A DNA stretch of 35,864 nucleotides from a virus: the UHGV virus genome UHGV-0042415; one strand, given 5' to 3'. The notes beneath the pieces were generated by a model. It had not been told where the DNA came from. It saw nothing but the letters and a program-made list of their open reading frames with translations, and ran no database searches. A program made the translations under genes and the position numbers. Positions 3,719 through 16,165 of the stretch are shown here, piece by piece. Within the stretch, counting starts at the first letter, position 1; every line of letters starts with the position of its first letter.

Positions 3719-3961
3719 ATGGGCAAAGAATATAAAACTCTCATTAACAAAGCACTTGAGCGTTTTTATTTTCGCTTAAGTGCATCAGGCGCTCATGCTG
3801 AACGTGCAGCCCGTGACTCATTGACCAGGGCAATCCGGAGTCTGTATGACGTGGCTTTTTACGCTGATGATCTGGATGCACTTAACGAACTTTCCGAGCT
3901 GATCTGTGCCGCAGAATGCGGGGAACATATTGAACCGTATAAGCTGGGGAATATTGCATGA
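3719..3961 (+). CDS. Hypothetical early protein
   Basis: About 80 aa from the internal ATG at 3719, which avoids overlap with the upstream gene. Confidence 0.5.
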   Translation: MGKEYKTLINKALERFYFRLSASGAHAERAARDSLTRAIRSLYDVAFYADDLDALNELSELICAAECGEHIEPYKLGNIA

Positions 3962-4071
3962 GTATATTTATCTCATGGCTTGTTCTGATTATTTCGGTGG
4001 CCTGCGCCATTGGGATTATGCGAATTATTCATTCAGTAAAAAAGATTGAACGCTTTTTCACTGGCGAATAA
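3958..4071 (+). CDS. Small hydrophobic peptide (37 aa), possible small membrane protein
   Basis: MSIFISWLVLIISVACAIGIMRIIHSVKKIERFFTGE; ATGA overlap with the upstream stop; below the ORF-track length cutoff. Confidence 0.35.
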   Translation: MSIFISWLVLIISVACAIGIMRIIHSVKKIERFFTGE

Positions 4072-4157
4072 CAGAGCAAATAAAACCACAGGTTAAATAA
4101 GAAAATGTAAAAACAATCCGCATTCGCGGAGGTATTCGCACACGCCAAGGAGGCGTA

Positions 4158-4361
4158 ATGGCAATTAAGCATTTTCCTGTCGTTCGTTTTACCTCCAGAG
4201 GACGTGAATACGAAGTCGACGAACGCCTGATTACCACAATCGACAAACACCGTTCAGAAAAGGATGCACATCACATCTATCTCACTGACGGCACTTACTT
4301 CTGCGCCACGAATGTGGTGCGGGTGAACCTTATCCGACAGGTACAGGAGTCACGCAGATGA
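4158..4361 (+). CDS. Hypothetical early protein
   Basis: 67 aa; strong SD (aaggagg) upstream. Confidence 0.6.
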   Translation: MAIKHFPVVRFTSRGREYEVDERLITTIDKHRSEKDAHHIYLTDGTYFCATNVVRVNLIRQVQESRR

Positions 4362-4603
4362 CCATTCTGGACTATATCGCCGCCAATCCGGGGTGTAGCG
4401 GTGGAGAAATCGCCGCAGCACTGAATACCCCAACCACAGCCATTAATGCGGAGTTACGCCGACTCTGGCGCAGCGGTTCAGTCATAAGAAAAGAGCGCAA
4501 AACAGGCGGTCGCTTTTCTTACCAGATAAACCCGATGCCGTTCGGGTGCGGCAATCCACTTACCAACATGTTTAACCAGCTACTGAAGGAGGCCAGAGCA
4601 TGA
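4358..4603 (+). CDS. Small putative winged-helix DNA-binding protein
   Basis: 81 aa; ILDYIAANPGCSGGEIAAALNTPTTAINAELRRL resembles a winged-HTH; overlapping start and stop with neighbours. Confidence 0.55.
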   Translation: MTILDYIAANPGCSGGEIAAALNTPTTAINAELRRLWRSGSVIRKERKTGGRFSYQINPMPFGCGNPLTNMFNQLLKEARA

Positions 4604-4899
4604 GCGCCATCAACCACCAGGAATTACGCGAACTGGCGATTGACCTGCAACGAATGGCAACGCATCAAAAATTACTGGCGTTTCGCGCAATGCTCTCGCC
4701 GTCTGCCGTGCTGGCACTGCTGGATGAGCTGGAGCACGCCAGAACCATGTCTCCAGCCATTCGCCTGGCGCTCCATCATGAAATCGCTGATTTCTGCGCT
4801 CCACTGGGTTCGCCTGGTGAACCAGAAACGCCGGAAGCAATGCAACGAGAGCTACTGCAACGCATCGACAAGGTTTTTGATTTCTTCCTTAACCAGTAA
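4600..4899 (+). CDS. Hypothetical early protein (Ead/Ea22-like features)
   Basis: 99 aa; helical, LLDELE-type motif; SD ggagg upstream. Confidence 0.55.
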   Translation: MSAINHQELRELAIDLQRMATHQKLLAFRAMLSPSAVLALLDELEHARTMSPAIRLALHHEIADFCAPLGSPGEPETPEAMQRELLQRIDKVFDFFLNQ

Positions 4900-4910
4900 A
4901 GGACCGCGAT

Positions 4911-5114
4911 ATGAACAAAAAGACCTGGTTTCGCGCATACATGTGGGCGCTGGTATGCGTCCTCGTTTCTCTCATTCTGTATGCAGGACTACTCCCCCGA
5001 ATGATTTCATCAGACAGCTCCTTCTTGGTATTGCTGGGCATTTTCATTGCCATGCTGTACCCGGCAGGCGTTGTTCGCCTTTTCAGTAAGTACATCAAGG
5101 AAATCAAACAATGA
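4911..5114 (+). CDS. Small two-TM membrane protein, likely partner of the downstream SPFH protein
   Basis: 67 aa; two hydrophobic segments (WALVCVLVSLILYAGLL, FLVLLGIFIAMLYPAGVV); stop overlaps the SPFH gene start (ATGA). Confidence 0.6.
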   Translation: MNKKTWFRAYMWALVCVLVSLILYAGLLPRMISSDSSFLVLLGIFIAMLYPAGVVRLFSKYIKEIKQ

Positions 5115-6980: not shown

Positions 6981-9779
6981 ATGACGGCAGAGTACATCAG
7001 GGACTGGCAACAGCCGCGCCACGCAGTGGGACGTGAAGGAACGGGGATCCCCGTTCCTGAATCCGCGCTTTCCTCCTGGCTGGATGCCTACCGGGCAGAG
7101 AACGAGCGCCGCCAGGAAATGGCTGATGCGGCGTTCTCCGCCACGCCGCTGGGCAACCTGATTAATAAAAGCCTGGATGCACAGGAAAAACAGGACAAAA
7201 CCATCACACTGGCAGGAGACGCCAGAAAACAGGTACGCGGTGCGGTGGATGAAGCCATGGCCTCGCTGCGCCTGCTGCCGTCCTATCTGCGCGATCCGCT
7301 TATTCGCCACCTCTCCTTCCTGCGCAAAAAACAGGAAGCCGATCGCCGGAAAGGCAAAAAGAGCTGGCAGGCTGAACGCTACGCGCGCGGAACCCTGCGC
7401 AAAATATTCGAACGTCTGGACCGCACCGACCACCGCTGGCTGACACCGGGTTATCGCTCCCTTGCCGGACGCGAACGCCTGGATGATTTGCTTTACCTGC
7501 CGCAGCTCAACAAGCACCAGATACAGACGCTGGCCACCATGACGGCGGCGATGTTCAGCAGCACCTTCGAAAAACTCTGCGATGGCTTTGGCGCGACTGA
7601 TGGCGAGCTGACCATGGAGGTAACGCTGAAGGCGTATCAGATGCTGGCCCGCATGGCGTTACACCTGCACGCCATGCCTCCGCATTATGACGCACTGACA
7701 ACAGACAAAGACCGGAGGAACGAACCGGACACGGAGTTGCTGCCGGGCGCAATCCTTCGCCTGACCTGTGCGGAATGGTGGAAACGCAAACTGTGGCTGT
7801 TACGTTGCGAGTGGCGGGAAGAACAACTCCGCGCCGCCTGTCTGGTTTCCAGAAAAACATCGCCCTATCTGAGCCAGGACGCGTTAAGCGAGTTTCGCGC
7901 ACAGCGCGAGAAAACACGCGATTTCCTGAAAAGTTTCATGCTGGAAAACGAAGACGGGTTCACGATTGATCTCGAGACGGTGTATTACGCGGGAGTAAGT
8001 AATCCGGTTCATCGTAAGGCAGAAATGATGGCCACCATGAAGGGGCTGGAACTTCTGGCCGAAGCCCGTGGCGACAAAGCGGTGTTTCTGACTGTCACCT
8101 GCCCGTCAAAATACCACGCCACAACAGAGAACGGTCATCCGAATCCCAAATGGAACGGGGCCACCATGCGCGACTCCAGCGATTACCTGGTTAACACGTT
8201 TTTTGCGGCGGTCCGCAAGAAACTGAACCGCGACGGCCTGCGCTGGTATGGCATCCGCACGGTGGAGCCTCACCATGACGGCACCGTGCACTGGCATATG
8301 ATGGTCTTTGCTCATCCGGAAGAAATCGACACCATTGTGTCCCACACCCGCGATATTGCCATTCAGGAAGATCGTCACGAGCTGGGTGATGATATTACCC
8401 CACGCTTTAAGGCGGAGTACGTCGACGGCTCAAAAGGCACACCGACCAGCTACATCGCCACCTACATCGGGAAAAACCTGGACAGCCGTGCCGTGGATGG
8501 CATCGACCCGAAAACGGGCAAGCCACGCGTTGACCACGAAACCGGAAAATCAATGGCCGAGAGCGTGGAACGCGCCATCGGCTGGGCGCGCCTTCACCGG
8601 GTCCGCCAGTTCCAGTTCTTTGGTATCCCCTCCCGTCAGGTGTGGCGTGAACTGCGCCGCCTTGCCAGCCAGATGGCTCGCAACCCGGAAGGACCGCAAC
8701 GGCTGAAGGATGACGCAATGGACGCGGTTCTTGCTTCCGCTGATGCCGGATGTTTTGCCACCTACATAGAGAAACAGGGCGGCGTACTTGTTCCACGCAA
8801 GGACTACCTGATTCGCACCGCCTACGACCTCGCAGATGAGCTGAACGATTACGGTGAACAGAGCGTACAGATTTACGGGATCTGGTCACCGCTCATCGGG
8901 GAGTCTTCCCGCGTATGCACGCATCCGGACAACTGGAAGCTGGTAAGACGCAAACCGGAAGCGGAAGACAGCGCCCGCGAAAATGGTTTTGACCTTCAGG
9001 GCGGCCCTGCCGCCCCTTGGACTCGTGGCAATAACTGTCCCCGTGTACAGGAAACGGACAACAACGGGACAGAACAGCCGGAAGAACGGCCAGCACCGTG
9101 GCCGCAGCTTCCTGACGGCGTTGACGTGAATGAATGGATGCGCTCACTGAAACGGCACGAACGCCGGGCGCTGATGCGTTCGCTGCGTGACAAACAGGCA
9201 AAAAACAGCAGTGATGAAATGCAGAACTGGACACAGAGCCGCAAACAGCCACAGCCTTTGCCTGATAACCACGAGTTACTCGCTAAAGAATGGCGGGAGT
9301 CTGCTGAATCTCTCGGCCTGCATATCGGTGAACAGCAGGTGCAGCACCTGTTACGGGGCGGCAGTCTGTACGTTGACGGCAGCATCATTGCACCGCAGGG
9401 ATTTGAAATTGTACGCAAACCGGATACCCGCCAGGACAGCCGAATCACGCAGCTCTGGCAACGCCTGAGCCGTAATCACGGCGTAAGCAGCACGGAGATC
9501 CGCCATAACCCGGTCGCCAGCTATCTGGAACAGCTGGGGGCATCAGACCCTGAAGCCGCCGCACGCCTGGCATCCACACTTCAGCAGGACCAGAACACCA
9601 TGAAAACACCCGTTACCGTGCTTTCTGACATGCTGCGCGCCATCCGCGACGCAGAGCACGCACAGAGAATCAGTGAAACCACTGAACGCGCCCGCCGCAA
9701 AGCAGACCTGCTGCGGGGTGGCCTGACCAGTGGAAACAAAAAAACAGACAGAAACGGGACTCACAAATCCCGTAAATGA
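6981..9779 (+). CDS. A: Rolling-circle replication initiator (P2 gpA-like endonuclease)
   Basis: 932 aa; HUH-type motif VHWHMMVF and paired catalytic tyrosines YIATYIGK as in P2 A-family initiators; long Q/R/E-rich C-terminal extension. Confidence 0.88.
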   Translation: MTAEYIRDWQQPRHAVGREGTGIPVPESALSSWLDAYRAENERRQEMADAAFSATPLGNLINKSLDAQEKQDKTITLAGDARKQVRGAVDEAMASLRLLPSYLRDPLIRHLSFLRKKQEADRRKGKKSWQAERYARGTLRKIFERLDRTDHRWLTPGYRSLAGRERLDDLLYLPQLNKHQIQTLATMTAAMFSSTFEKLCDGFGATDGELTMEVTLKAYQMLARMALHLHAMPPHYDALTTDKDRRNEPDTELLPGAILRLTCAEWWKRKLWLLRCEWREEQLRAACLVSRKTSPYLSQDALSEFRAQREKTRDFLKSFMLENEDGFTIDLETVYYAGVSNPVHRKAEMMATMKGLELLAEARGDKAVFLTVTCPSKYHATTENGHPNPKWNGATMRDSSDYLVNTFFAAVRKKLNRDGLRWYGIRTVEPHHDGTVHWHMMVFAHPEEIDTIVSHTRDIAIQEDRHELGDDITPRFKAEYVDGSKGTPTSYIATYIGKNLDSRAVDGIDPKTGKPRVDHETGKSMAESVERAIGWARLHRVRQFQFFGIPSRQVWRELRRLASQMARNPEGPQRLKDDAMDAVLASADAGCFATYIEKQGGVLVPRKDYLIRTAYDLADELNDYGEQSVQIYGIWSPLIGESSRVCTHPDNWKLVRRKPEAEDSARENGFDLQGGPAAPWTRGNNCPRVQETDNNGTEQPEERPAPWPQLPDGVDVNEWMRSLKRHERRALMRSLRDKQAKNSSDEMQNWTQSRKQPQPLPDNHELLAKEWRESAESLGLHIGEQQVQHLLRGGSLYVDGSIIAPQGFEIVRKPDTRQDSRITQLWQRLSRNHGVSSTEIRHNPVASYLEQLGASDPEAAARLASTLQQDQNTMKTPVTVLSDMLRAIRDAEHAQRISETTERARRKADLLRGGLTSGNKKTDRNGTHKSRK

Positions 9780-9880: not shown

Positions 9881-10840
9881 ATGAAAATTTGTATCGACGA
9901 CGGCTCCACCAACATCAAGCTGGCATGGACTGAGAACGGCGAACGCCGCAACGCCATCAGCCCGAACAGCTTCAAGTCGGAATGGTCTGCGCCGTTCGGT
10001 GGCACGCAGCCCGCGAACTACATGCTTGATGGCGTGCGCTATGGTTTTGATCCGGTCAGCGATCGCTTTGTCCAGACGACCGACACGCAATACCAGTACA
10101 GCGATGTGAATATAATTGCCATTCATCACGCGCTGGTCAAATCAGGCATCACACCACAGGAAGTGGATGTGGTTGTCACCCTGCCACTGAGCGAGTATTT
10201 CGATACAAACGCACAGCCGGACATGGCCAACATCAACCGCAAAAAAGCGAACGTCATGCGCCCGGTGGAGTACCAGAACGGCGAAGCATTCACTATCCGT
10301 AACGTACGGGTTATGCCTGAATCCATTCCGGCTGGCTTTAAGGCACTGGCTGACATGAGTCCGTTTGAATCCCTGCTGATTGTGGATTTGGGCGGAACCA
10401 CGCTGGATGTGGCAAAGGTTCAGGGGCAACTGGCAGGTATCAGCCAGGTGTTTTGCGATCCACACGTGGGCGTTTCTCTGATGGCCGATGCCGTACTGTC
10501 GGTGATGGCCACTAACGGTATGCGCACCAGTCACCACATCGCCAATACCATTATCGAACATCGCCATGATGAAGCCTGGCTGCGCCAGCACATCCACAAT
10601 GACGCGCATTACGCCAGCCTGATGGCGGTAATTCGTGAAAAGGAAGAAACACTGAAACAACGCGTGATCCGCGCGCTGGCGGGTTTTTCGGGTTACGGGC
10701 GGGTGATGGTTGTCGGTGGAGGGGCGGAGATTGTGGCACCCGCTATCCGCGAAGCCTGCGGAGTTAATGCGACTTTCATCGCGGACGGGGTGCCACAGTT
10801 TGCTCTGGTTAATGGGCTGTACGCAATGGACAAGGAGTAA
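9881..10840 (+). CDS. parM: ParM/StbA-like actin-fold segregation ATPase
   Basis: 319 aa; N-terminus MKICIDDGSTNIKLAW closely matches plasmid R1 ParM (MLVFIDDGSTNIKLQW); phosphate-2 motif LIVDLGGTTLDVA; same length as ParM. Confidence 0.85.
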   Translation: MKICIDDGSTNIKLAWTENGERRNAISPNSFKSEWSAPFGGTQPANYMLDGVRYGFDPVSDRFVQTTDTQYQYSDVNIIAIHHALVKSGITPQEVDVVVTLPLSEYFDTNAQPDMANINRKKANVMRPVEYQNGEAFTIRNVRVMPESIPAGFKALADMSPFESLLIVDLGGTTLDVAKVQGQLAGISQVFCDPHVGVSLMADAVLSVMATNGMRTSHHIANTIIEHRHDEAWLRQHIHNDAHYASLMAVIREKEETLKQRVIRALAGFSGYGRVMVVGGGAEIVAPAIREACGVNATFIADGVPQFALVNGLYAMDKE

Positions 10841-10844
10841 ACCA

Positions 10845-11156
10845 ATGACGACTCCAACCAGACGGATAAGTTTCTATCTGAAGCCCACCGCCGTCAAGAA
10901 CGAAGGAGAAGCATGCGCCTGGCTGGACAGCCTTACACCAGAAGCCCGCAAAAGCGGCCAACGCGTGGCTTTTCTGGCCGGGCTGGCACTTCTGAAAATG
11001 AATCCGGCAGAGGCTTATCGACTGGCTGCATGGGCTGGTGATGAAGCGTTATCAGTGACACAAACCAGGACAGAACGCCCCGCATCACAGCCAGTATCAA
11101 CCGCACAGATAACCAGTCAGATGGCCGGAAATATCCGGGCGTTATTTCCTGAATAA
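10845..11156 (+). CDS. parR: ParR-like small DNA-binding adaptor protein
   Basis: 103 aa from the ATG at 10845 with SD aggag; RRISFYLKP...AFLAGLALLKMNP...IRALFPE resembles R1 ParR (RTIAFKLNP...AALTAGLALY...LRSLFPKE); directly follows parM. Confidence 0.65.
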   Translation: MTTPTRRISFYLKPTAVKNEGEACAWLDSLTPEARKSGQRVAFLAGLALLKMNPAEAYRLAAWAGDEALSVTQTRTERPASQPVSTAQITSQMAGNIRALFPE

Positions 11157-11219
11157 CACAACATCAGGGCGAGTTCGCCCTGCTCTCCACCTCAGAACAT
11201 AAACAAGGAGAACGACTTA

Positions 11220-11603
11220 ATGAGCGAAATCAACTATCAGGCATTACGTGAACGTTATTCACCTGTGCCAGTACCGAAATGCCCTATTTGCGGCGAGGAA
11301 ATGTCAATTCAGCGAATATCTGGAGCACAGGTTGTTTATGCCTGCTCCGGTTATGGTGATGATGGAGATTTCAAAATTGGTCGAACTCTTGCCGACGAAC
11401 ATTATGAAAAATCACGCGTAACAGTGTTGGATGTCGGGGATCCTGAAGTATTGGCGCTACTTGATTGGCTGGAAACCAAAGACAACCGAATCGCTGAACT
11501 GGAAAAAATCGCCACTGACTATGCACTTAAATTCCAGAAAGCACAGGACGCATTAAAGTACGCCGCTTTGCTGCATAGCAGGACAGCGCAGCTAAAATAC
11601 TAA
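11220..11603 (+). CDS. Hypothetical protein with N-terminal Cys cluster and helical C-terminus
   Basis: 127 aa; CPICGEEM...YACSGYGDDGD; SD aaggag upstream. Confidence 0.6.
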   Translation: MSEINYQALRERYSPVPVPKCPICGEEMSIQRISGAQVVYACSGYGDDGDFKIGRTLADEHYEKSRVTVLDVGDPEVLALLDWLETKDNRIAELEKIATDYALKFQKAQDALKYAALLHSRTAQLKY

Positions 11604-11693
11604 CTTAAAGCGGAAGATTAATACATGGTGAGTCGGGGTAATTTGTTTTTATCCCGACAAATAAACAAAAAAGTGGACTATCTCTGTAGTATC

Positions 11694-12224
11694 TTATTCA
11701 GCATCGTCTCGTGCAGTCTGTGCATACGTCACAACAACGCCCAATGCATTAGTTTTCTTTTCAACATAGATAATATTGTCATATTCATAGTTACCATACG
11801 GATAGCAAATAAGAATATTTTTATGCAGTTCGGGATCATCAACAAACGCTCCGGAACAGCTTCTTGAACTACCAGATGTATACTCATACGGTGCAACATA
11901 TGATGATGTTACTCCTGGTAAAAAATAAGTCACCATCATAAGAGGGATAATCAGGAATATCCCTGTAAGAATGCAAGAGCCAGCATAAACCTTCAGGTAT
12001 TCCGACAGTCCTTTCCAGCCACTTTGCTTCACTACCCCCCTCTTCACCAGAAACAAGGAGAAGAAAAAGGACATACCCATACTACACAAGATGTAATAAT
12101 TGGATATACGCGAATTAAGATATGTAATCCTGTAGATATCTGCCCTCCACCAGTAAAAGAGGAAAATAATCCCTAGCACTGAAACAGTCATGCAAATCAA
12201 ATAAGGATATGAATCTTTCTTCAT
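11694..12224 (-). CDS. Three-TM inner-membrane protein with soluble C-terminal domain (AT-rich cargo)
   Basis: 176 aa; hydrophobic segments YLICMTVSVLGIIFLFYWW, YILCSMGMSFFFSLFLV, CILTGIFLIIPLMMVTYFL; strongly AT-rich gene on the strand opposite its neighbours. Confidence 0.7.
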   Translation of the reverse strand: MKKDSYPYLICMTVSVLGIIFLFYWWRADIYRITYLNSRISNYYILCSMGMSFFFSLFLVKRGVVKQSGWKGLSEYLKVYAGSCILTGIFLIIPLMMVTYFLPGVTSSYVAPYEYTSGSSRSCSGAFVDDPELHKNILICYPYGNYEYDNIIYVEKKTNALGVVVTYAQTARDDAE

Positions 12225-12828
12225 GTCTTGCGCTCATTAAAATTTCCCTGCTACGAACAAATTTACCATCCGTTTTTTGCGCAGAAAACAGCACGATGCA
12301 CACTGCACGATAGTGCACAAATTTGCACAATTTTTTTGAACGACTTTTTCCCCTTCCGGCCCGTATAGCGGCTGGATCCGTCAAGGATCCGTGCGTGCAC
12401 AAAAAAACGCGCTTTTTCTGCGCGCAGGTGACGGGGGAACAGCCCGCGTTTCAGGGGGTAAATAGCATTCCCTGAACGATGTCGCAGCGACACAACAGAA
12501 TGGCTGTATCGCTCACGCTGAGCGTGAAAAATACGTAAGGGGTTCTGATTTGATGGGGTGAAAGGTAAGGCCGTCAAATCGCAATGAGACGGCGAGAACA
12601 TGCTGTCAGCTCGATGGGATTGCGTAAGAGTCTGGCCATCGATGATGGCGATAAGTTGGAAGACGTCGTGAAATTATCTGATTGATACGGGTGCTGGAGA
12701 GTCGGGGCATAAATTTTTTATGCCCCGGCGAAGCAGCAGACAAGCGAAGCGCGTCAGTGATGCGGCACCTTGCCGACCACACTCCATAAGTGCAAAATAC
12801 GAGCAAAGAAATCAATGGAGGCTGTTTT

Positions 12829-13353
12829 ATGGTCATTAATTACAAGCAGTTACGAGAAAAACGAGAGCAGGTAAAGGAAAGTTTTCGCCGCAATGAAGAT
12901 CTGACCCCGCTTGTACACCTTGCCCAGGGAATTGTTGATGCTTATGAAATCTCTCTGGAGCTGCCATCACAGACATGGACGGATAGCGACGGTAATCGCC
13001 AGCATTACGTTTCATGCGGACTGGAAACAACTGAAGGGTTTCGCAGAATGCCTTTATCTCAGATTCCTGCCGCTACCCCCAAAGCAAGGGGCGGCAATGA
13101 TGAGCGAAAACTGATTTTTAGCATTGAGACAGTGGTTGACGACACACCTGGCGAAGTCGCGTTCGTGCATACTCCTCTTTCGATCGCAATGTATAACGAT
13201 GAAATACAGGTTCGCGTTAATAATAATATCGTGCCACTTAAAGAAGGTAATTCACCCTACACCACCGTTTGTGAAGCCATTCAATATTACGTTCTCTCTG
13301 AAATTGATAATCTCAAGCCTGACGGCACCCAGAAAATGGTTCAACTCTGGTAA
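12829..13353 (+). CDS. Hypothetical soluble protein between the putative cos region and the portal gene
   Basis: 174 aa from the ATG at 12829 with SD ggagg (the ORF track starts at an upstream GTG); followed by its own terminator. Confidence 0.6.
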   Translation: MVINYKQLREKREQVKESFRRNEDLTPLVHLAQGIVDAYEISLELPSQTWTDSDGNRQHYVSCGLETTEGFRRMPLSQIPAATPKARGGNDERKLIFSIETVVDDTPGEVAFVHTPLSIAMYNDEIQVRVNNNIVPLKEGNSPYTTVCEAIQYYVLSEIDNLKPDGTQKMVQLW

Positions 13354-13359
13354 TAAGGA

Positions 13360-13384
13360 CAGCCCCATCACGGGGCTGTTTTTT
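13360..13384 (+). terminator. Rho-independent terminator
   Basis: cagcccc-atcac-ggggctg stem followed by TTTTTT; overlaps the portal stop codon. Confidence 0.7.
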
Positions 13385-14414
13385 CATCAAGAAGTGCATA
13401 AGAGTTAAAACGGATCACCTCTTCGCCAAGCCAGTCATTGATGTGCTTCATGGCCTCCATGACGGGCATCAGCTCGTTAATTGCGTAAACCCGCGCGGCC
13501 TTCTCCACATCACCAAACGCACTTTTTTCACCCGGCATCGCCCCCATCAGTTGCGGCGGAACGCGGTGCGCAGCCAGCACATCATCACGGGATGCCGCCT
13601 TAACATTCATGAACTCATCCTTTGCGGTGATCTGCTGGAACGGCAAAATTTGCACCCCCTCTTTGCCCCCGTTGGGCGCATGAATGAGCACGTTTTTAAA
13701 CGCACCACCACCACGTGCCCCCTGTAGCGTTTCTTTCAGGGAGTCCATGCTTTCGCGGTTTACCTGCGCTGCACCGATGTAGATGATGCACCCGGCGTGG
13801 GATCCGTTGTCGTAATACAGTTTTCTGAACATGTCCGCCGAATGAGACAGGCTGGCCGAGAGTAATGCGCCAAGATATTCCGGCATGCCGTAAATTTCCT
13901 GGTTAATGTCAGGATTCATCAGGTGGCACACTTTACCAGGGCGAAACTGAAACGCATCCTTGCCATCCTGCACATACCACCATGATTCAAGATCGCTTCC
14001 GCGTCGCATGTATTTCGCCAGGGCGTGCCGTAATTTAAGCGGTTCGCCGAGCATATTGCTCCGAAGCTCAAGGAATGCGTTACCGAACACAAACCAGTCC
14101 AGCGCCAGCGCCGAGAAATCCTGCCGGGAAAGCAGCGGGTGCGGAATGTAGCAACCGAGCAATACATTACGCTTAAAGTAAAGCGCAGACTGATGCCAGG
14201 ACGTTTGCCGGGCAGCTCTTGCCAGACCGTACCAGTCCACCGGGGTTTCATACCACCGCCCGTTATCAGCACAGTACATGTTGTCCAGCAGGTCATGCCC
14301 GGTCAGGCGATAAGGACCATCAAATGTGAATGCACTGAGCGATGATTCTTTCCTGAGCGCATCAGCGAGATCAATGCGTGAACTCATGCGCACTTTTTTA
14401 TTTTTTCTGCTCAT
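13368..14414 (-). CDS. Q: Portal protein (P2 gpQ-like)
   Basis: 348 aa; size and sequence resemble P2 Q; 1-nt overlap with the terminase gene; leftward orientation as in P2. Confidence 0.9.
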   Translation of the reverse strand: MSRKNKKVRMSSRIDLADALRKESSLSAFTFDGPYRLTGHDLLDNMYCADNGRWYETPVDWYGLARAARQTSWHQSALYFKRNVLLGCYIPHPLLSRQDFSALALDWFVFGNAFLELRSNMLGEPLKLRHALAKYMRRGSDLESWWYVQDGKDAFQFRPGKVCHLMNPDINQEIYGMPEYLGALLSASLSHSADMFRKLYYDNGSHAGCIIYIGAAQVNRESMDSLKETLQGARGGGAFKNVLIHAPNGGKEGVQILPFQQITAKDEFMNVKAASRDDVLAAHRVPPQLMGAMPGEKSAFGDVEKAARVYAINELMPVMEAMKHINDWLGEEVIRFNSYALLDEKTAP

Positions 14415-16165
14415 CAGAACTCCATAACCGTGAAACGCTCGTTTTCTCCTTCGCCGCCAATCGGTTCGTTAATGACAGCAAGCATGGTTGCCCACGCAAG
14501 GTCGCCGTGGCTGATCCCCCTCGCGCGGTCCGTTTCGTAAGTGATAAAGCCGCCCGGTGTTTTCACCTTACGCACGGCGTTAAAGGCCGCGACCAGCTCG
14601 CGTTCGGCGCGATCGTATTCCCACCGCCCGGCACGCATTATTTGCAGCATTTTCAGTACCAGCGACCGTTTTGATGACAGCGTGAAGGTGTACGGAATAG
14701 CAGCAGGGAAAAACCGTTTCACTATCTGATAAACAGCCTCCCCGTTCCCGCCCGTCACATCAATGCCGATGTGTTCCACGTTGTAGCGACACGTGAACTC
14801 TTCAATGACTCTGGCCTGTTCTTCAAACTCCAGCCCCTGAACGCGTCGCGTCTCCACCGTTCGAAAACGGCCTCCAGGAACAGCCGGAGGAACCACTACG
14901 GACACAGCGCCGCTGTCGCCGTTTCCACTGCTGCCGTTTGCGTCATACCCAATCCATACCGGACGATTCCCCATCGGGCGGGGAGCAAAAGGTTTCCAGT
15001 CTTTCCAGTCGTCGTATCCGTCAACACCGCAGCCAATCAGTATATTCAGGTTAAATGCCGATTCCCCTTCGCGGACAAACTCACACATATAGAGATTGCG
15101 GAACTCGTCTTCGGTGTTTTCATCACGAATTTCGTCAATATCGGTGTGTTTCCAGCCGTGATTAACCACATCTTCCAGCGTGACAATTTGCCGCCACGTC
15201 CGGTCAGGGCAGATAAGCCCGTTATGCAGCGTTTTCCAGTCCACAGAAAAACGCTGACGTTTATGCGTGGCCTTTTTCTCGTTCCAGCGGTCGCCGTTCC
15301 AGTAGGCGTATGCCTCGTGCGTTTCGGTGGATGGCGTGGAGAAGTAGGTGCGCCGCAGTCCGCTGAGGGTTGCCATAGCGCCAGCCACCTTGCGCAGTTC
15401 AGCAAAGCGACTGACCCAGAAAAATTCATCAAAATAAAAATTGCCCGTGTAGGACTGTGCCGTCGCAGCAGAAGTACCAAGAAAATGCAGCTCTGCGCCG
15501 TTGGAGAGGATGATTTTATCGCCCCCTTTCAGCTCCACATCAACTTCAGATGCAGCCTTCTGAATAATGCTTTTAAACTGGAACGCCTGACGACGCGACG
15601 CAGACAAAAAAATCTGGTTACGCTGGTAAGGTTGCGCCACATCGTCACGCAGCGCCATCAGCAGTGCTTCCTGTGCAAAATACCAGGTCGCCCCAATCTG
15701 TCGGGATTTCAGGATCATCCTGTTACGTATCCCGGCTTCACTGCAAAGGGTCAGGGAGTCAAACCAGCCCCGCTGATGCCACTCCAGCCTGCTGATGATT
15801 TTTTCCCGCAGTGCGGCAATCTGCTCCGGCGTGAAATGATTTTTAAGTTTTTTCGCCCGGCCTTTCTTTCCTGTGGCCGTCGCATCCGGCTGGCCATCAT
15901 GCAGTTTTTTAAGCTGCCGGGTCAGCAGGTCTATTTCCTTAAAGTCACCGCCTGTTTTATTCTGTTTTTCAGTAAGCTGGATGAGGCGCGCATCGATGGA
16001 CTGCGTGACACGCTGCACGGGTGGCGTTTCATCCCACTGGTCGCGTTTTTTCCACGCATAAATCGTGTTCGGGTTTATTCCCATCAGACGTGATATTTCT
16101 GCGGGCGGATAACCCTGCCAGTAAAGTTGCCGCGCACGCTGGCGCACAAAAGCGTCCTGAATCAT
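14414..16165 (-). CDS. P: Terminase large (ATPase) subunit (P2 gpP-like)
   Basis: 583 aa; divergent from the O-N-M-L operon as in P2. Confidence 0.9.
   Translation of the reverse strand: MIQDAFVRQRARQLYWQGYPPAEISRLMGINPNTIYAWKKRDQWDETPPVQRVTQSIDARLIQLTEKQNKTGGDFKEIDLLTRQLKKLHDGQPDATATGKKGRAKKLKNHFTPEQIAALREKIISRLEWHQRGWFDSLTLCSEAGIRNRMILKSRQIGATWYFAQEALLMALRDDVAQPYQRNQIFLSASRRQAFQFKSIIQKAASEVDVELKGGDKIILSNGAELHFLGTSAATAQSYTGNFYFDEFFWVSRFAELRKVAGAMATLSGLRRTYFSTPSTETHEAYAYWNGDRWNEKKATHKRQRFSVDWKTLHNGLICPDRTWRQIVTLEDVVNHGWKHTDIDEIRDENTEDEFRNLYMCEFVREGESAFNLNILIGCGVDGYDDWKDWKPFAPRPMGNRPVWIGYDANGSSGNGDSGAVSVVVPPAVPGGRFRTVETRRVQGLEFEEQARVIEEFTCRYNVEHIGIDVTGGNGEAVYQIVKRFFPAAIPYTFTLSSKRSLVLKMLQIMRAGRWEYDRAERELVAAFNAVRKVKTPGGFITYETDRARGISHGDLAWATMLAVINEPIGGEGENERFTVMEF

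Follow-up and report, generated by a model that had tools for sequence, protein, structure and literature searches.

A small membrane-protein gene in the cos-proximal cargo slot of a P2-like prophage: a candidate for single-gene superinfection exclusion

The locus and the membrane-protein gene

The virus genome UHGV-0042415, a stretch of 35,864 nucleotides referred to here in its whole length as the window, finds its phage matches in Xuanwuvirus (P88-like, i.e., P2-like phages of the Peduoviridae). The region from position 11100 to 12450 is identical (100%) to the chromosome of E. coli M8, and at least 80% of it is present in 62 of 5426 complete E. coli genomes. This region carries a gene for a membrane protein of 176 amino acids (aa), which is the subject of the present analysis. 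The gene lies between the replication gene gpA and the portal gene, next to a cos-like site, i.e., in the gpA-gpQ interval that has been described as a defence hotspot of P2 phages (PMC9122126; PMC13586616) and in which one fifth of the P2 elements carry only unknown genes (PMC13586616). A first-pass annotation, made from the sequence without database searches, had placed it between replication/partition genes and the cos/portal region, in agreement with the finding of gpA, ParM, and ParR to its left and the portal gene to its right (Table 1).

The membrane-protein gene is a minus-strand open reading frame (ORF) that converges on a plus-strand ORF of 127 aa, as was recognized in the first-pass annotation. 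The three transmembrane (TM) helices and the soluble tail of about 75 residues that had been assigned to its product at the same time were recovered in an AlphaFold (AF2) model built on a 30-sequence family alignment (pLDDT 90, pTM 0.76). The modelled helices comprise residues 6–29, 38–61, and 71–101 and are followed by five beta strands at residues 105–171, while one additional short strand (residues 34–36) is found in the first loop. Hydropathy is in agreement with this, as TM1 and TM3 are supported with a 19-residue window and TM2 reaches 1.79 over residues 43–60 when summed by hand on the same hydropathy scale.

Comparison to the allele of phage 434 gave a dS of 1.22 and a dN of 0.12 (dN/dS 0.10), with the C-terminal domain as the most constrained part of the protein (pN 0.08 vs. 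0.14). C123, C140, and G162 do not vary among the 30 family members, the most distant of which are 25% identical, and W26, G104, G118, G125, L133, I137, G144, and K156 are nearly invariant; there is no invariant set of acidic or histidine residues. The C-terminal domain is acidic (10 Asp/Glu vs. 5 Lys/Arg). Nearly all members, including the distant and the chromosomal ones, begin at the same methionine (MKKxSYPYL), and in the window in-frame TAA and TGA stop codons are located just upstream of the ATG at position 12224. PGAP annotates the gene as “frameshifted” in E. coli M8 and H3, which by itself would indicate a decaying pseudogene or a spurious ORF. The label arises because the reference models (200–223 aa) start upstream; other strains share the coding sequence of M8 and H3, and there the 176-aa ORF carries an annotation as an intact gene (WP_000711113.1). 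A pseudogene is hardly conceivable in view of a dN/dS of 0.10 at a dS of 1.2, the common start, and the confident AlphaFold model, and this reading was rejected on the selection data and the conserved start in the alignment. To judge from its sequence, the ORF is a functional protein-coding gene. A lipoprotein was also considered and rejected, as C11 is preceded by Leu-Ile, is not part of a lipobox and is not conserved.

Database searches gave little to compare the protein with. No Pfam family was matched, SieB (PF14163) and Imm included (best scores 12–14 bits against cutoffs of 27–30), nor any NCBIfam, and the PADLOC scan proposed in the first-pass annotation (PADLOC-DB v2.0.0) returned no families at E ≤ 1. 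A profile search against PDB sequences gave a single match with an E-value of 0.2, and a structure search found no neighbour, the best being an OB fold at an E-value of 0.05. Residues 90–175 do match the 90-position profile of PHROG 1416 (phrog_1416, function unknown) with an E-value of 2.6e-45. The C-terminal half of the protein therefore already belongs to a recognized phage protein cluster, but this cluster covers that half only, probably due to mis-called short ORFs when it was built, and has no function assigned to it. Literature searches by the accessions WP_000711113, WP_000120056, and WP_000711110 and by mEp332 returned nothing functional. WP_000711113 is listed as “hypothetical” in the supplementary locus table of Rousset 2022 (PMC9122126). 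Both the hotspot and the protein are thus on record, and the gene is an uncharacterized cargo of a known kind of locus.

An inserted cassette and the gene that it truncated

When the window is aligned to the commonest P88-like arrangement, identity is 99.3% to the left of position 11591, the alignment breaks at 11590/11591 and at 12302/12303, and identity resumes to the right of 12302. The cassette in between replaced 258 bp of the ancestral arrangement, i.e., the 3′ end of an Ea22-like gene and the hairpin belonging to it, and its right-hand recombination junction falls within a series of GTGCA/TGCAC repeats. The GC content is 0.382 from 11592 to 12300 and 0.386 for the membrane-protein gene, compared to 0.519 over the entire window and 0.549 in parM-parR, and the drop to 0.37–0.40 is seen between approximately 11600 and 12350. 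Distinct composition (0.38 vs. 0.52–0.55) and sharp insertion boundaries are among the properties of a moron, and judged by both the cassette is clearly foreign DNA. The AT-rich island of the first-pass annotation and its horizontal acquisition are thereby borne out, while its limits, originally set at 11157–12240, need to be corrected to those of the inserted DNA, 11591–12302. An 80-aa plus-strand ORF (11625–11867), which overlaps the membrane-protein gene, and minus-strand ORFs at 12115–12402 and 12263–12601, which overlap the gene or the conserved non-coding block next to it, have no protein-like features and were taken as non-coding.

The convergent 127-aa ORF had been described as a Cys-cluster protein, and the locus as a whole as having no recognizable domain. 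This holds for the membrane protein but not for the 127-aa ORF, which matches Pfam Ead_Ea22 (PF13935) with 102.9 bits against a cutoff of 27 (E-value 2.8e-29) over profile positions 1–110 of 139. It shares 124 of 196 residues with the resident Ea22-like gene, from which it diverges at the cassette junction; residues 1–124 are ancestral and the last three codons and the stop codon are supplied by the cassette. An intact 196-aa version is found in 12 of 50 related loci, and PGAP labels the 127-aa ORF a pseudogene (“incomplete, missing C-terminus”). As the cassette replaced the 3′ end of the Ea22-like gene, the 127-aa ORF is a truncation product; by alignment it corresponds to the first two-thirds (5′) of the resident Ead/Ea22-like gene and is not a partner of the membrane-protein gene.

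The cassette brings a hairpin, which had been indicated at 11630–11670 and is found at 11632–11658 between the two convergent genes, with a folding energy of −15.4 kcal/mol on the plus strand and −10.1 kcal/mol on the minus strand (RNAfold). It is not among the terminator-like sites predicted in the window. In the phage 434 counterpart the stem is retained through one compensatory G-C to A-T change, as read from the alignment. On the other side of the gene, a putative extended −10 element is located 35 nt before the ATG. The motif TGnTAA(A/T/G)TT is kept 35–40 nt before the ATG in seven of seven homologous loci from E. coli, phage 434, Salmonella, and Enterobacter. A consensus promoter scanner reported no promoter at its thresholds, and the putative promoter is proposed from conservation only.

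To the right of the cassette follows a block that is 90–92% identical in P88, Shae_phiSM, and P88_4B11 regardless of the cargo. The cos-like site within this block was placed by conservation across P2-like loci and by the position, about 12349, at which the linear P88_4B11 record breaks. Its 19-mer, GGTGACGGGGGAACAGCCC, matches P2 cos, GGCGAGGCGGGGAAAGCAC, at 13 of 19 positions (hand count), and an 18-mer resembling P2 cos, GTGACGGGGGAACAGCCC, is identical in P2-like loci of Salmonella (L095) and Enterobacter (L100); a BLAST search with the P2 cos junction against window positions 12225–12800 gave only 8-mers. The GTGCA/TGCAC (TTGTGCA) motifs between the cos-like core and the cargo promoter are spaced by about 10 nt and, irrespective of the cargo, are kept in P2-like phages of E. 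coli, Salmonella, and Enterobacter. It may be that terminase or an accessory factor binds to these motifs.

A variable cargo slot

The first-pass annotation considered the locus equivalent to that of old and tin in P2, where anti-phage genes are exchanged, and called for a comparison of related prophages. For this purpose, 80 IMG/VR loci with a ParM at least 99% identical were fetched, and 48 IMG/VR loci together with P88 and Shae_phiSM were anchored at the parR end and at the cos block, which with the window makes 51 loci. The interval between parR and cos varies from 610 to 3788 bp among these and holds 21 cargo types. Only the intact Ea22-like gene is present in 12 loci, and the cassette of the window is found in 3 of the 50 related loci. 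Anti-phage cargo recognized by PADLOC in the relatives includes an AbiLi/AbiLii-like ATPase with a Toprim protein, IetA with an S8 protease (IetAS), an RmrA-like protein, and PDC-M04A/DUF3800. A Phd/Doc-type pair is also found among the cargo, the Doc/Fic toxin of which gives only weak matches to PDC-S23. The locus is therefore variable among related prophages and does exchange anti-phage cargo, as had been presumed.

The equivalence to the P2 old/tin slot is also supported by the layout. The membrane-protein gene is the first gene inward from cos and lies on the strand opposite to gpA, as old and tin do in P2; both slots hold minus-strand genes near cos that are convergent with the A operon. 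The two P2 genes, which are exclusion genes of lysogenic conversion and lie at the right end of P2, occupy the same interval between gpA and cos/gpQ, are dispensable and vary among relatives. They are transcribed towards the A operon from a start about 150 nt away from cosR, and gene order and strand in the window are comparable. The products differ, however. According to their annotation Old is an ATPase/nuclease and Tin a soluble protein, whereas the window encodes a small polytopic membrane protein.

Two unrelated single genes with an N-terminal membrane anchor (172 and 198 aa) were found in the same slot and on the same strand in other loci, without a PADLOC match: memP of Shae_phiSM (L002, 4148–4666) and a gene at cargo positions 43–639 of L053. 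These may be regarded as further candidates.

Relatives and transfer between phage families

A HMMER scan of 1.84 billion cluster representatives identified 57 proteins, and nearly all full-length ones are about 170 aa long with the same architecture. A protein of 3074 aa (P0103) with 11 weak matches to residues 122–163 was dropped, as Pfam found only sub-threshold repeat noise in it. The genome-wide search for loci was carried out with a 10-sequence alignment of the family. Alleles with 55–65% identity are present in Salmonella and Enterobacter P2-like prophages that have no ParMR, between portal and gpA and on the strand of the portal gene; two of these loci (L095 and L100) also share GTGACGGGGGAACAGCCC and the TTGTGCA repeats upstream. 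Phages 434, mEp332, and 2B8, as well as many lambdoid prophages, carry a 79% identical allele between xis and exo, with an orientation opposite to that of the pL operon. This 434 allele occurs in 911 of 5426 complete E. coli genomes (about 17%), compared to 77 genomes for the window allele and 83 for a third allele. The third allele (78.6% nucleotide identity) is intact in a prophage remnant near torI in strain D7. Similarly, the 434 allele is intact in O157:H7 in a decayed prophage at ybhC, in which int is frameshifted and bet truncated. The two homologues concerned are located at 4929–5531 of L115 (O157:H7 F6321) and 4999–5529 of L116 (E. coli D7), and the signs of decay around them are a frameshifted integrase, a truncated bet, IS4, and a pseudogenized YqaJ. 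Intact genes in decayed prophages suggest retention by the host. More distant alleles (37–55% identical) are chromosomal singletons in Citrobacter, Enterobacter, Klebsiella, Erwinia, Kosakonia, and Phytobacter, and P2-like genes are absent up to a distance of 7 kb. Homology to a known housekeeping membrane protein, which the first-pass annotation had named as a reason to abandon its proposal of an anti-phage effector, was not encountered, although these chromosomal singletons do exist.

The gene has moved between phage families, and the DNA around it indicates the direction. The stretch from 11589 to 12361 is 76% identical to DNA of phages 434, mEp332, and 2B8, and the 434 cassette aligns again over window positions 12440–12531, on the far side of the cos-like core. 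The approximately 80 bp in between (window 12362–12439), which contain most of the cos-like core, are missing from the 434, mEp332, and 2B8 copy. As both flanks of a P2-like cos are thus found in a lambdoid phage, the transfer probably went from a P2-like genome into the lambdoid lineage, and the remnant suggests a P2-like genome in circular or integrated form as the source of the lambdoid moron. In 434, a “putative membrane protein” of 56 aa is annotated within this cos-flank remnant and is probably a spurious ORF.

Table 1. Features at the hotspot and in its surroundings (window positions).
Feature	Position	Strand	Remarks
gpA replication endonuclease	6981–9779		PF05840
ParM	9881–10840	+	PF06406/PF21523; left boundary of the hotspot together with ParR
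ParR/StbB	10845–11156	+	PF10784; kept with ParM in all related loci
Truncated Ead/Ea22-like ORF, 127 aa	11220–11603	+	PF13935 match
Inserted cassette	11591–12302		712 bp, GC 0.38; hairpin, membrane-protein gene, upstream promoter region
Hairpin between convergent genes	11632–11658		10-bp stem, 7-nt loop, no U-tract on either strand
Membrane-protein gene, 176 aa	11694–12224	−	3 TM helices and C-terminal beta domain; ORF, AlphaFold, dN/dS, family alignment
Putative promoter of the membrane-protein gene	12260–12288	−	−35-like TTTTCT 12288–12283, 17-nt spacer, extended −10 TGgTAAATT 12268–12260
GTGCA/TGCAC repeats	12297–12328		Between cos-like core and cargo promoter
Conserved cos-region block	12303–12765		Bounds the hotspot on the right
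cos flanks shared with phage 434	12303–12361 and 12440–12531		Phage 434 locus (L011) 3779–3868 and 3864–4638
cos-like 19-mer	12427–12445		GGTGACGGGGGAACAGCCC; within the conserved cos-region block
Extra ORF	12790/12829–13353	+	phrog_5091
Portal	13368–14414	−	
Terminase	14414–16165	−	

Proposed function and its alternatives

We propose, with a probability of roughly 0.4, that the prophage expresses an inner-membrane protein with a periplasmic, disulfide-bonded domain that blocks the entry of other phages, i.e., superinfection exclusion. The 176-aa gene would be a self-contained lysogenic-conversion gene (moron) in the cos-proximal old/tin slot and would be transcribed in the lysogen from its own extended −10 promoter. 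The product would insert into the inner membrane by three TM helices with the N-terminus in the cytoplasm, so that the disulfide-bonded beta domain (residues 103–176, plus the loop 30–37) would be placed in the periplasm. There it could interfere with genome delivery by incoming phages, and the target may be either the incoming tail-tip/ejection machinery or a host inner-membrane component that phages need and that the protein would occupy.

Exclusion is supported by the position of the gene in the old/tin slot, by the variability of this slot and the known systems that it holds in relatives, by the strong purifying selection, by the abundance of the gene in E. coli and its integrity in decayed prophages, and by the precedent of P22 SieA. 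The same gene and upstream element are found without a constant partner in P88-like, Salmonella, and Enterobacter prophages, in 434-type lambdoids and as chromosomal singletons. As the gene travels alone with a conserved upstream element, it would work alone and is probably expressed independently of the early operon. With respect to topology, K2/K3 and the Lys/Arg-rich loop 61–71 are on one side of the membrane, which would be the cytoplasmic one. The strand in loop 30–37 and the C-terminal strands are the only strands in the model, and we therefore infer that they pair and lie on the same side. The conserved, acidic domain with the two invariant cysteines is predicted to face the periplasm, where the C-terminal domain would form a small disulfide-stabilized beta-barrel. 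The modelled cytoplasmic surface amounts to about 15 residues (five at the N-terminus and a loop of about 10), not enough for a sensor in the cytoplasm. As the invariant residues are structural ones, with no acidic/His set among them, a binder is suggested rather than an enzyme. With little cytoplasmic surface and a conserved domain on the periplasmic side, exclusion fits the model better than abortive infection (Abi) that senses events in the cytoplasm, and exclusion appears the more likely of the two.

An Abi effector consisting of a single membrane protein would open or depolarize the inner membrane and kill the cell before phage release, as has been proposed for proteins of the SieB/RexB type. 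The arguments from the hotspot, i.e., the variable slot and the known systems in relatives, apply equally to such an effector, the TM proteins of known anti-phage systems are believed to be suicide effectors (Rousset 2022; PMC9122126), and in lambdoids a membrane gene, sieB, is likewise found on the opposite strand (PF14163 in L010). The protein of the window has no Pfam SieB match, however, and no partner sensor was seen in any context examined, while its few cytoplasmic residues would have to sense intracellular phage products and its most conserved part is predicted to face away from them. A constitutive pore former in about 19% of E. coli genomes would moreover need tight gating, and none was seen. 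We therefore consider Abi unlikely. A function in the phage life cycle that is tied to cos or to lysis, as a packaging accessory or holin-like protein, is more improbable by far. It would be in line with the constant cos-adjacent position in several P2-like lineages, and three TM helices recall class I holins. On the other hand, 47 of the 50 other P88-like loci lack the gene, among them P88, P88_4B11, and Shae_phiSM, which were deposited as complete phage genomes, and it is present in lambdoids far from cos and the lysis genes as well as in chromosomes. ORFs of P2-type late-gene size and order are found elsewhere in the window (by size and order alone), and we assume from this ORF layout and the P2 gene order that the lysis genes are located further to the right. 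The patchy distribution and the orientation opposite to the early operon led to rejection of a holin.

The alternative that deserves most attention is a role in the host envelope or in lysogenic conversion that has nothing to do with phages, such as immunity to a bacteriocin, a tailocin or an effector of a type VI secretion system, or a factor in envelope stress or colonization. We regard it as possible, if rather improbable. Several observations weigh in its favour. Chromosomal homologues are found in neighbourhoods that are neither prophage nor defence related, and as these singletons exist outside prophages the family is not strictly phage cargo. The gene is also kept intact in decayed prophages, and a small polytopic protein with a periplasmic binding domain would fit an immunity protein. 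The colicin E1 and A immunity proteins may offer a comparison here, with the Pfam scan of the window protein negative. Against a host envelope role stand the recurrence of the gene in the P2 defence hotspot and in the lambdoid accessory region, the lack of a cognate toxin nearby, and the neighbours of some chromosomal copies. The Phytobacter homologue adjoins a 1235-aa DUF4062-TPR STAND-like protein (L114, 2803–6510) and the Erwinia homologue adjoins a C-terminal fragment of HipA, with a Fic/PDC-S04 protein about 3 kb away (L108, 6525–6926 and 10828–11448). These neighbours are a weak hint of an association with defence islands. Other chromosomal homologues lie among ordinary genes.

If exclusion is nevertheless the function, it is tempting to speculate that the window holds the founding P2-like member of an unrecognized family, in which three TM helices and a periplasmic, disulfide-locked, OB-like beta-barrel constitute a single-gene exclusion system. 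The family would have moved from the cos end of P2-like phages to 434-type lambdoids together with cos-flanking DNA, and would have been kept by hosts in decayed prophages and chromosomal islets. Taken as a whole this scenario is tentative, and somewhat doubtful.

Likeness to known exclusion proteins

SieA of P22 is an inner-membrane protein of 162–164 aa with three TM helices that alone is necessary and sufficient to block DNA injection (PMC10883804). The mechanism proposed above is modelled on it. The protein of the window resembles it in being the product of a single prophage gene, in size (176 aa), in the number of TM helices and in the predicted location in the inner membrane. This is resemblance and not membership, as hhalign of the 30-sequence profile against P22 SieA gave a probability of 0.26% over 12 aligned columns, i.e., no homology was detected. 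The order of the parts is also different. As read from its sequence, SieA has a soluble stretch between the first hydrophobic segment and two C-terminal ones, whereas in the protein studied here the three TM helices come first and are followed by the 75-residue beta domain with the conserved cysteine pair. SieB of lambda and P22 is likewise encoded by a small opposite-strand membrane gene, in the lambdoid early region (as seen in L010), but differs in that the window protein does not match PF14163 and in that its conserved domain is predicted to lie on the periplasmic and not on the cytoplasmic side. Finally, gp15 of HK97, a superinfection-exclusion gene, is by annotation a moron that encodes a small membrane protein as an independent unit. 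It has 62 aa and, as read from its sequence, one hydrophobic segment and is located in the tail operon, and no similarity to the window protein was evident, by eye only.

The gpA-gpQ hotspot has already yielded new anti-phage systems, and a single small conserved gene is an attractive target there. The family recurs in several P2-like lineages and in 434-type lambdoids, and it survives where prophages of pathogenic E. coli have degraded. A mechanistic understanding has been reached for few exclusion proteins of the inner membrane, and best for P22 SieA. If the proposal is correct, another family, unrelated to SieA and with a compact domain in the periplasm, would help to study the passage of long-tailed phages across the inner membrane, and an exclusion family would be present in roughly one fifth of complete E. 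coli genomes, O157:H7 included. If the gene is not directed against phages, it is still a widespread and unexplained lysogenic-conversion gene.

Other features of the surroundings

Immediately upstream of the hotspot, the integrated P2-like prophage carries a complete actin-type partition module, ParM/ParR (StbA/StbB; 9881–11156). The module is at least 99% conserved over the 80 loci, and its role in an integrating phage is not obvious. In gpA, a run of seven A residues (9738–9744) is found where P88 and E. coli H3 have six. This shifts the frame of the last approximately 20 codons, resulting in an ORF of 932 aa compared to a gene of 2823 nt, or about 940 codons, in relatives, and PGAP marks gpA as “frameshifted” in M8. 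The additional A could reflect either an error in sequencing the homopolymer or a genuine lesion of the prophage.

A second variable slot is found between the cos block and the portal gene (12766–13367). It contains an insertion of about 590 bp that encodes a protein of 174–187 aa belonging to phrog_5091 (function unknown) and matching nothing in Pfam or PADLOC. The insertion is present in 4 of the 44 related loci in which the distance could be measured, and in the others about 400 bp separate the cos anchor from the portal gene.

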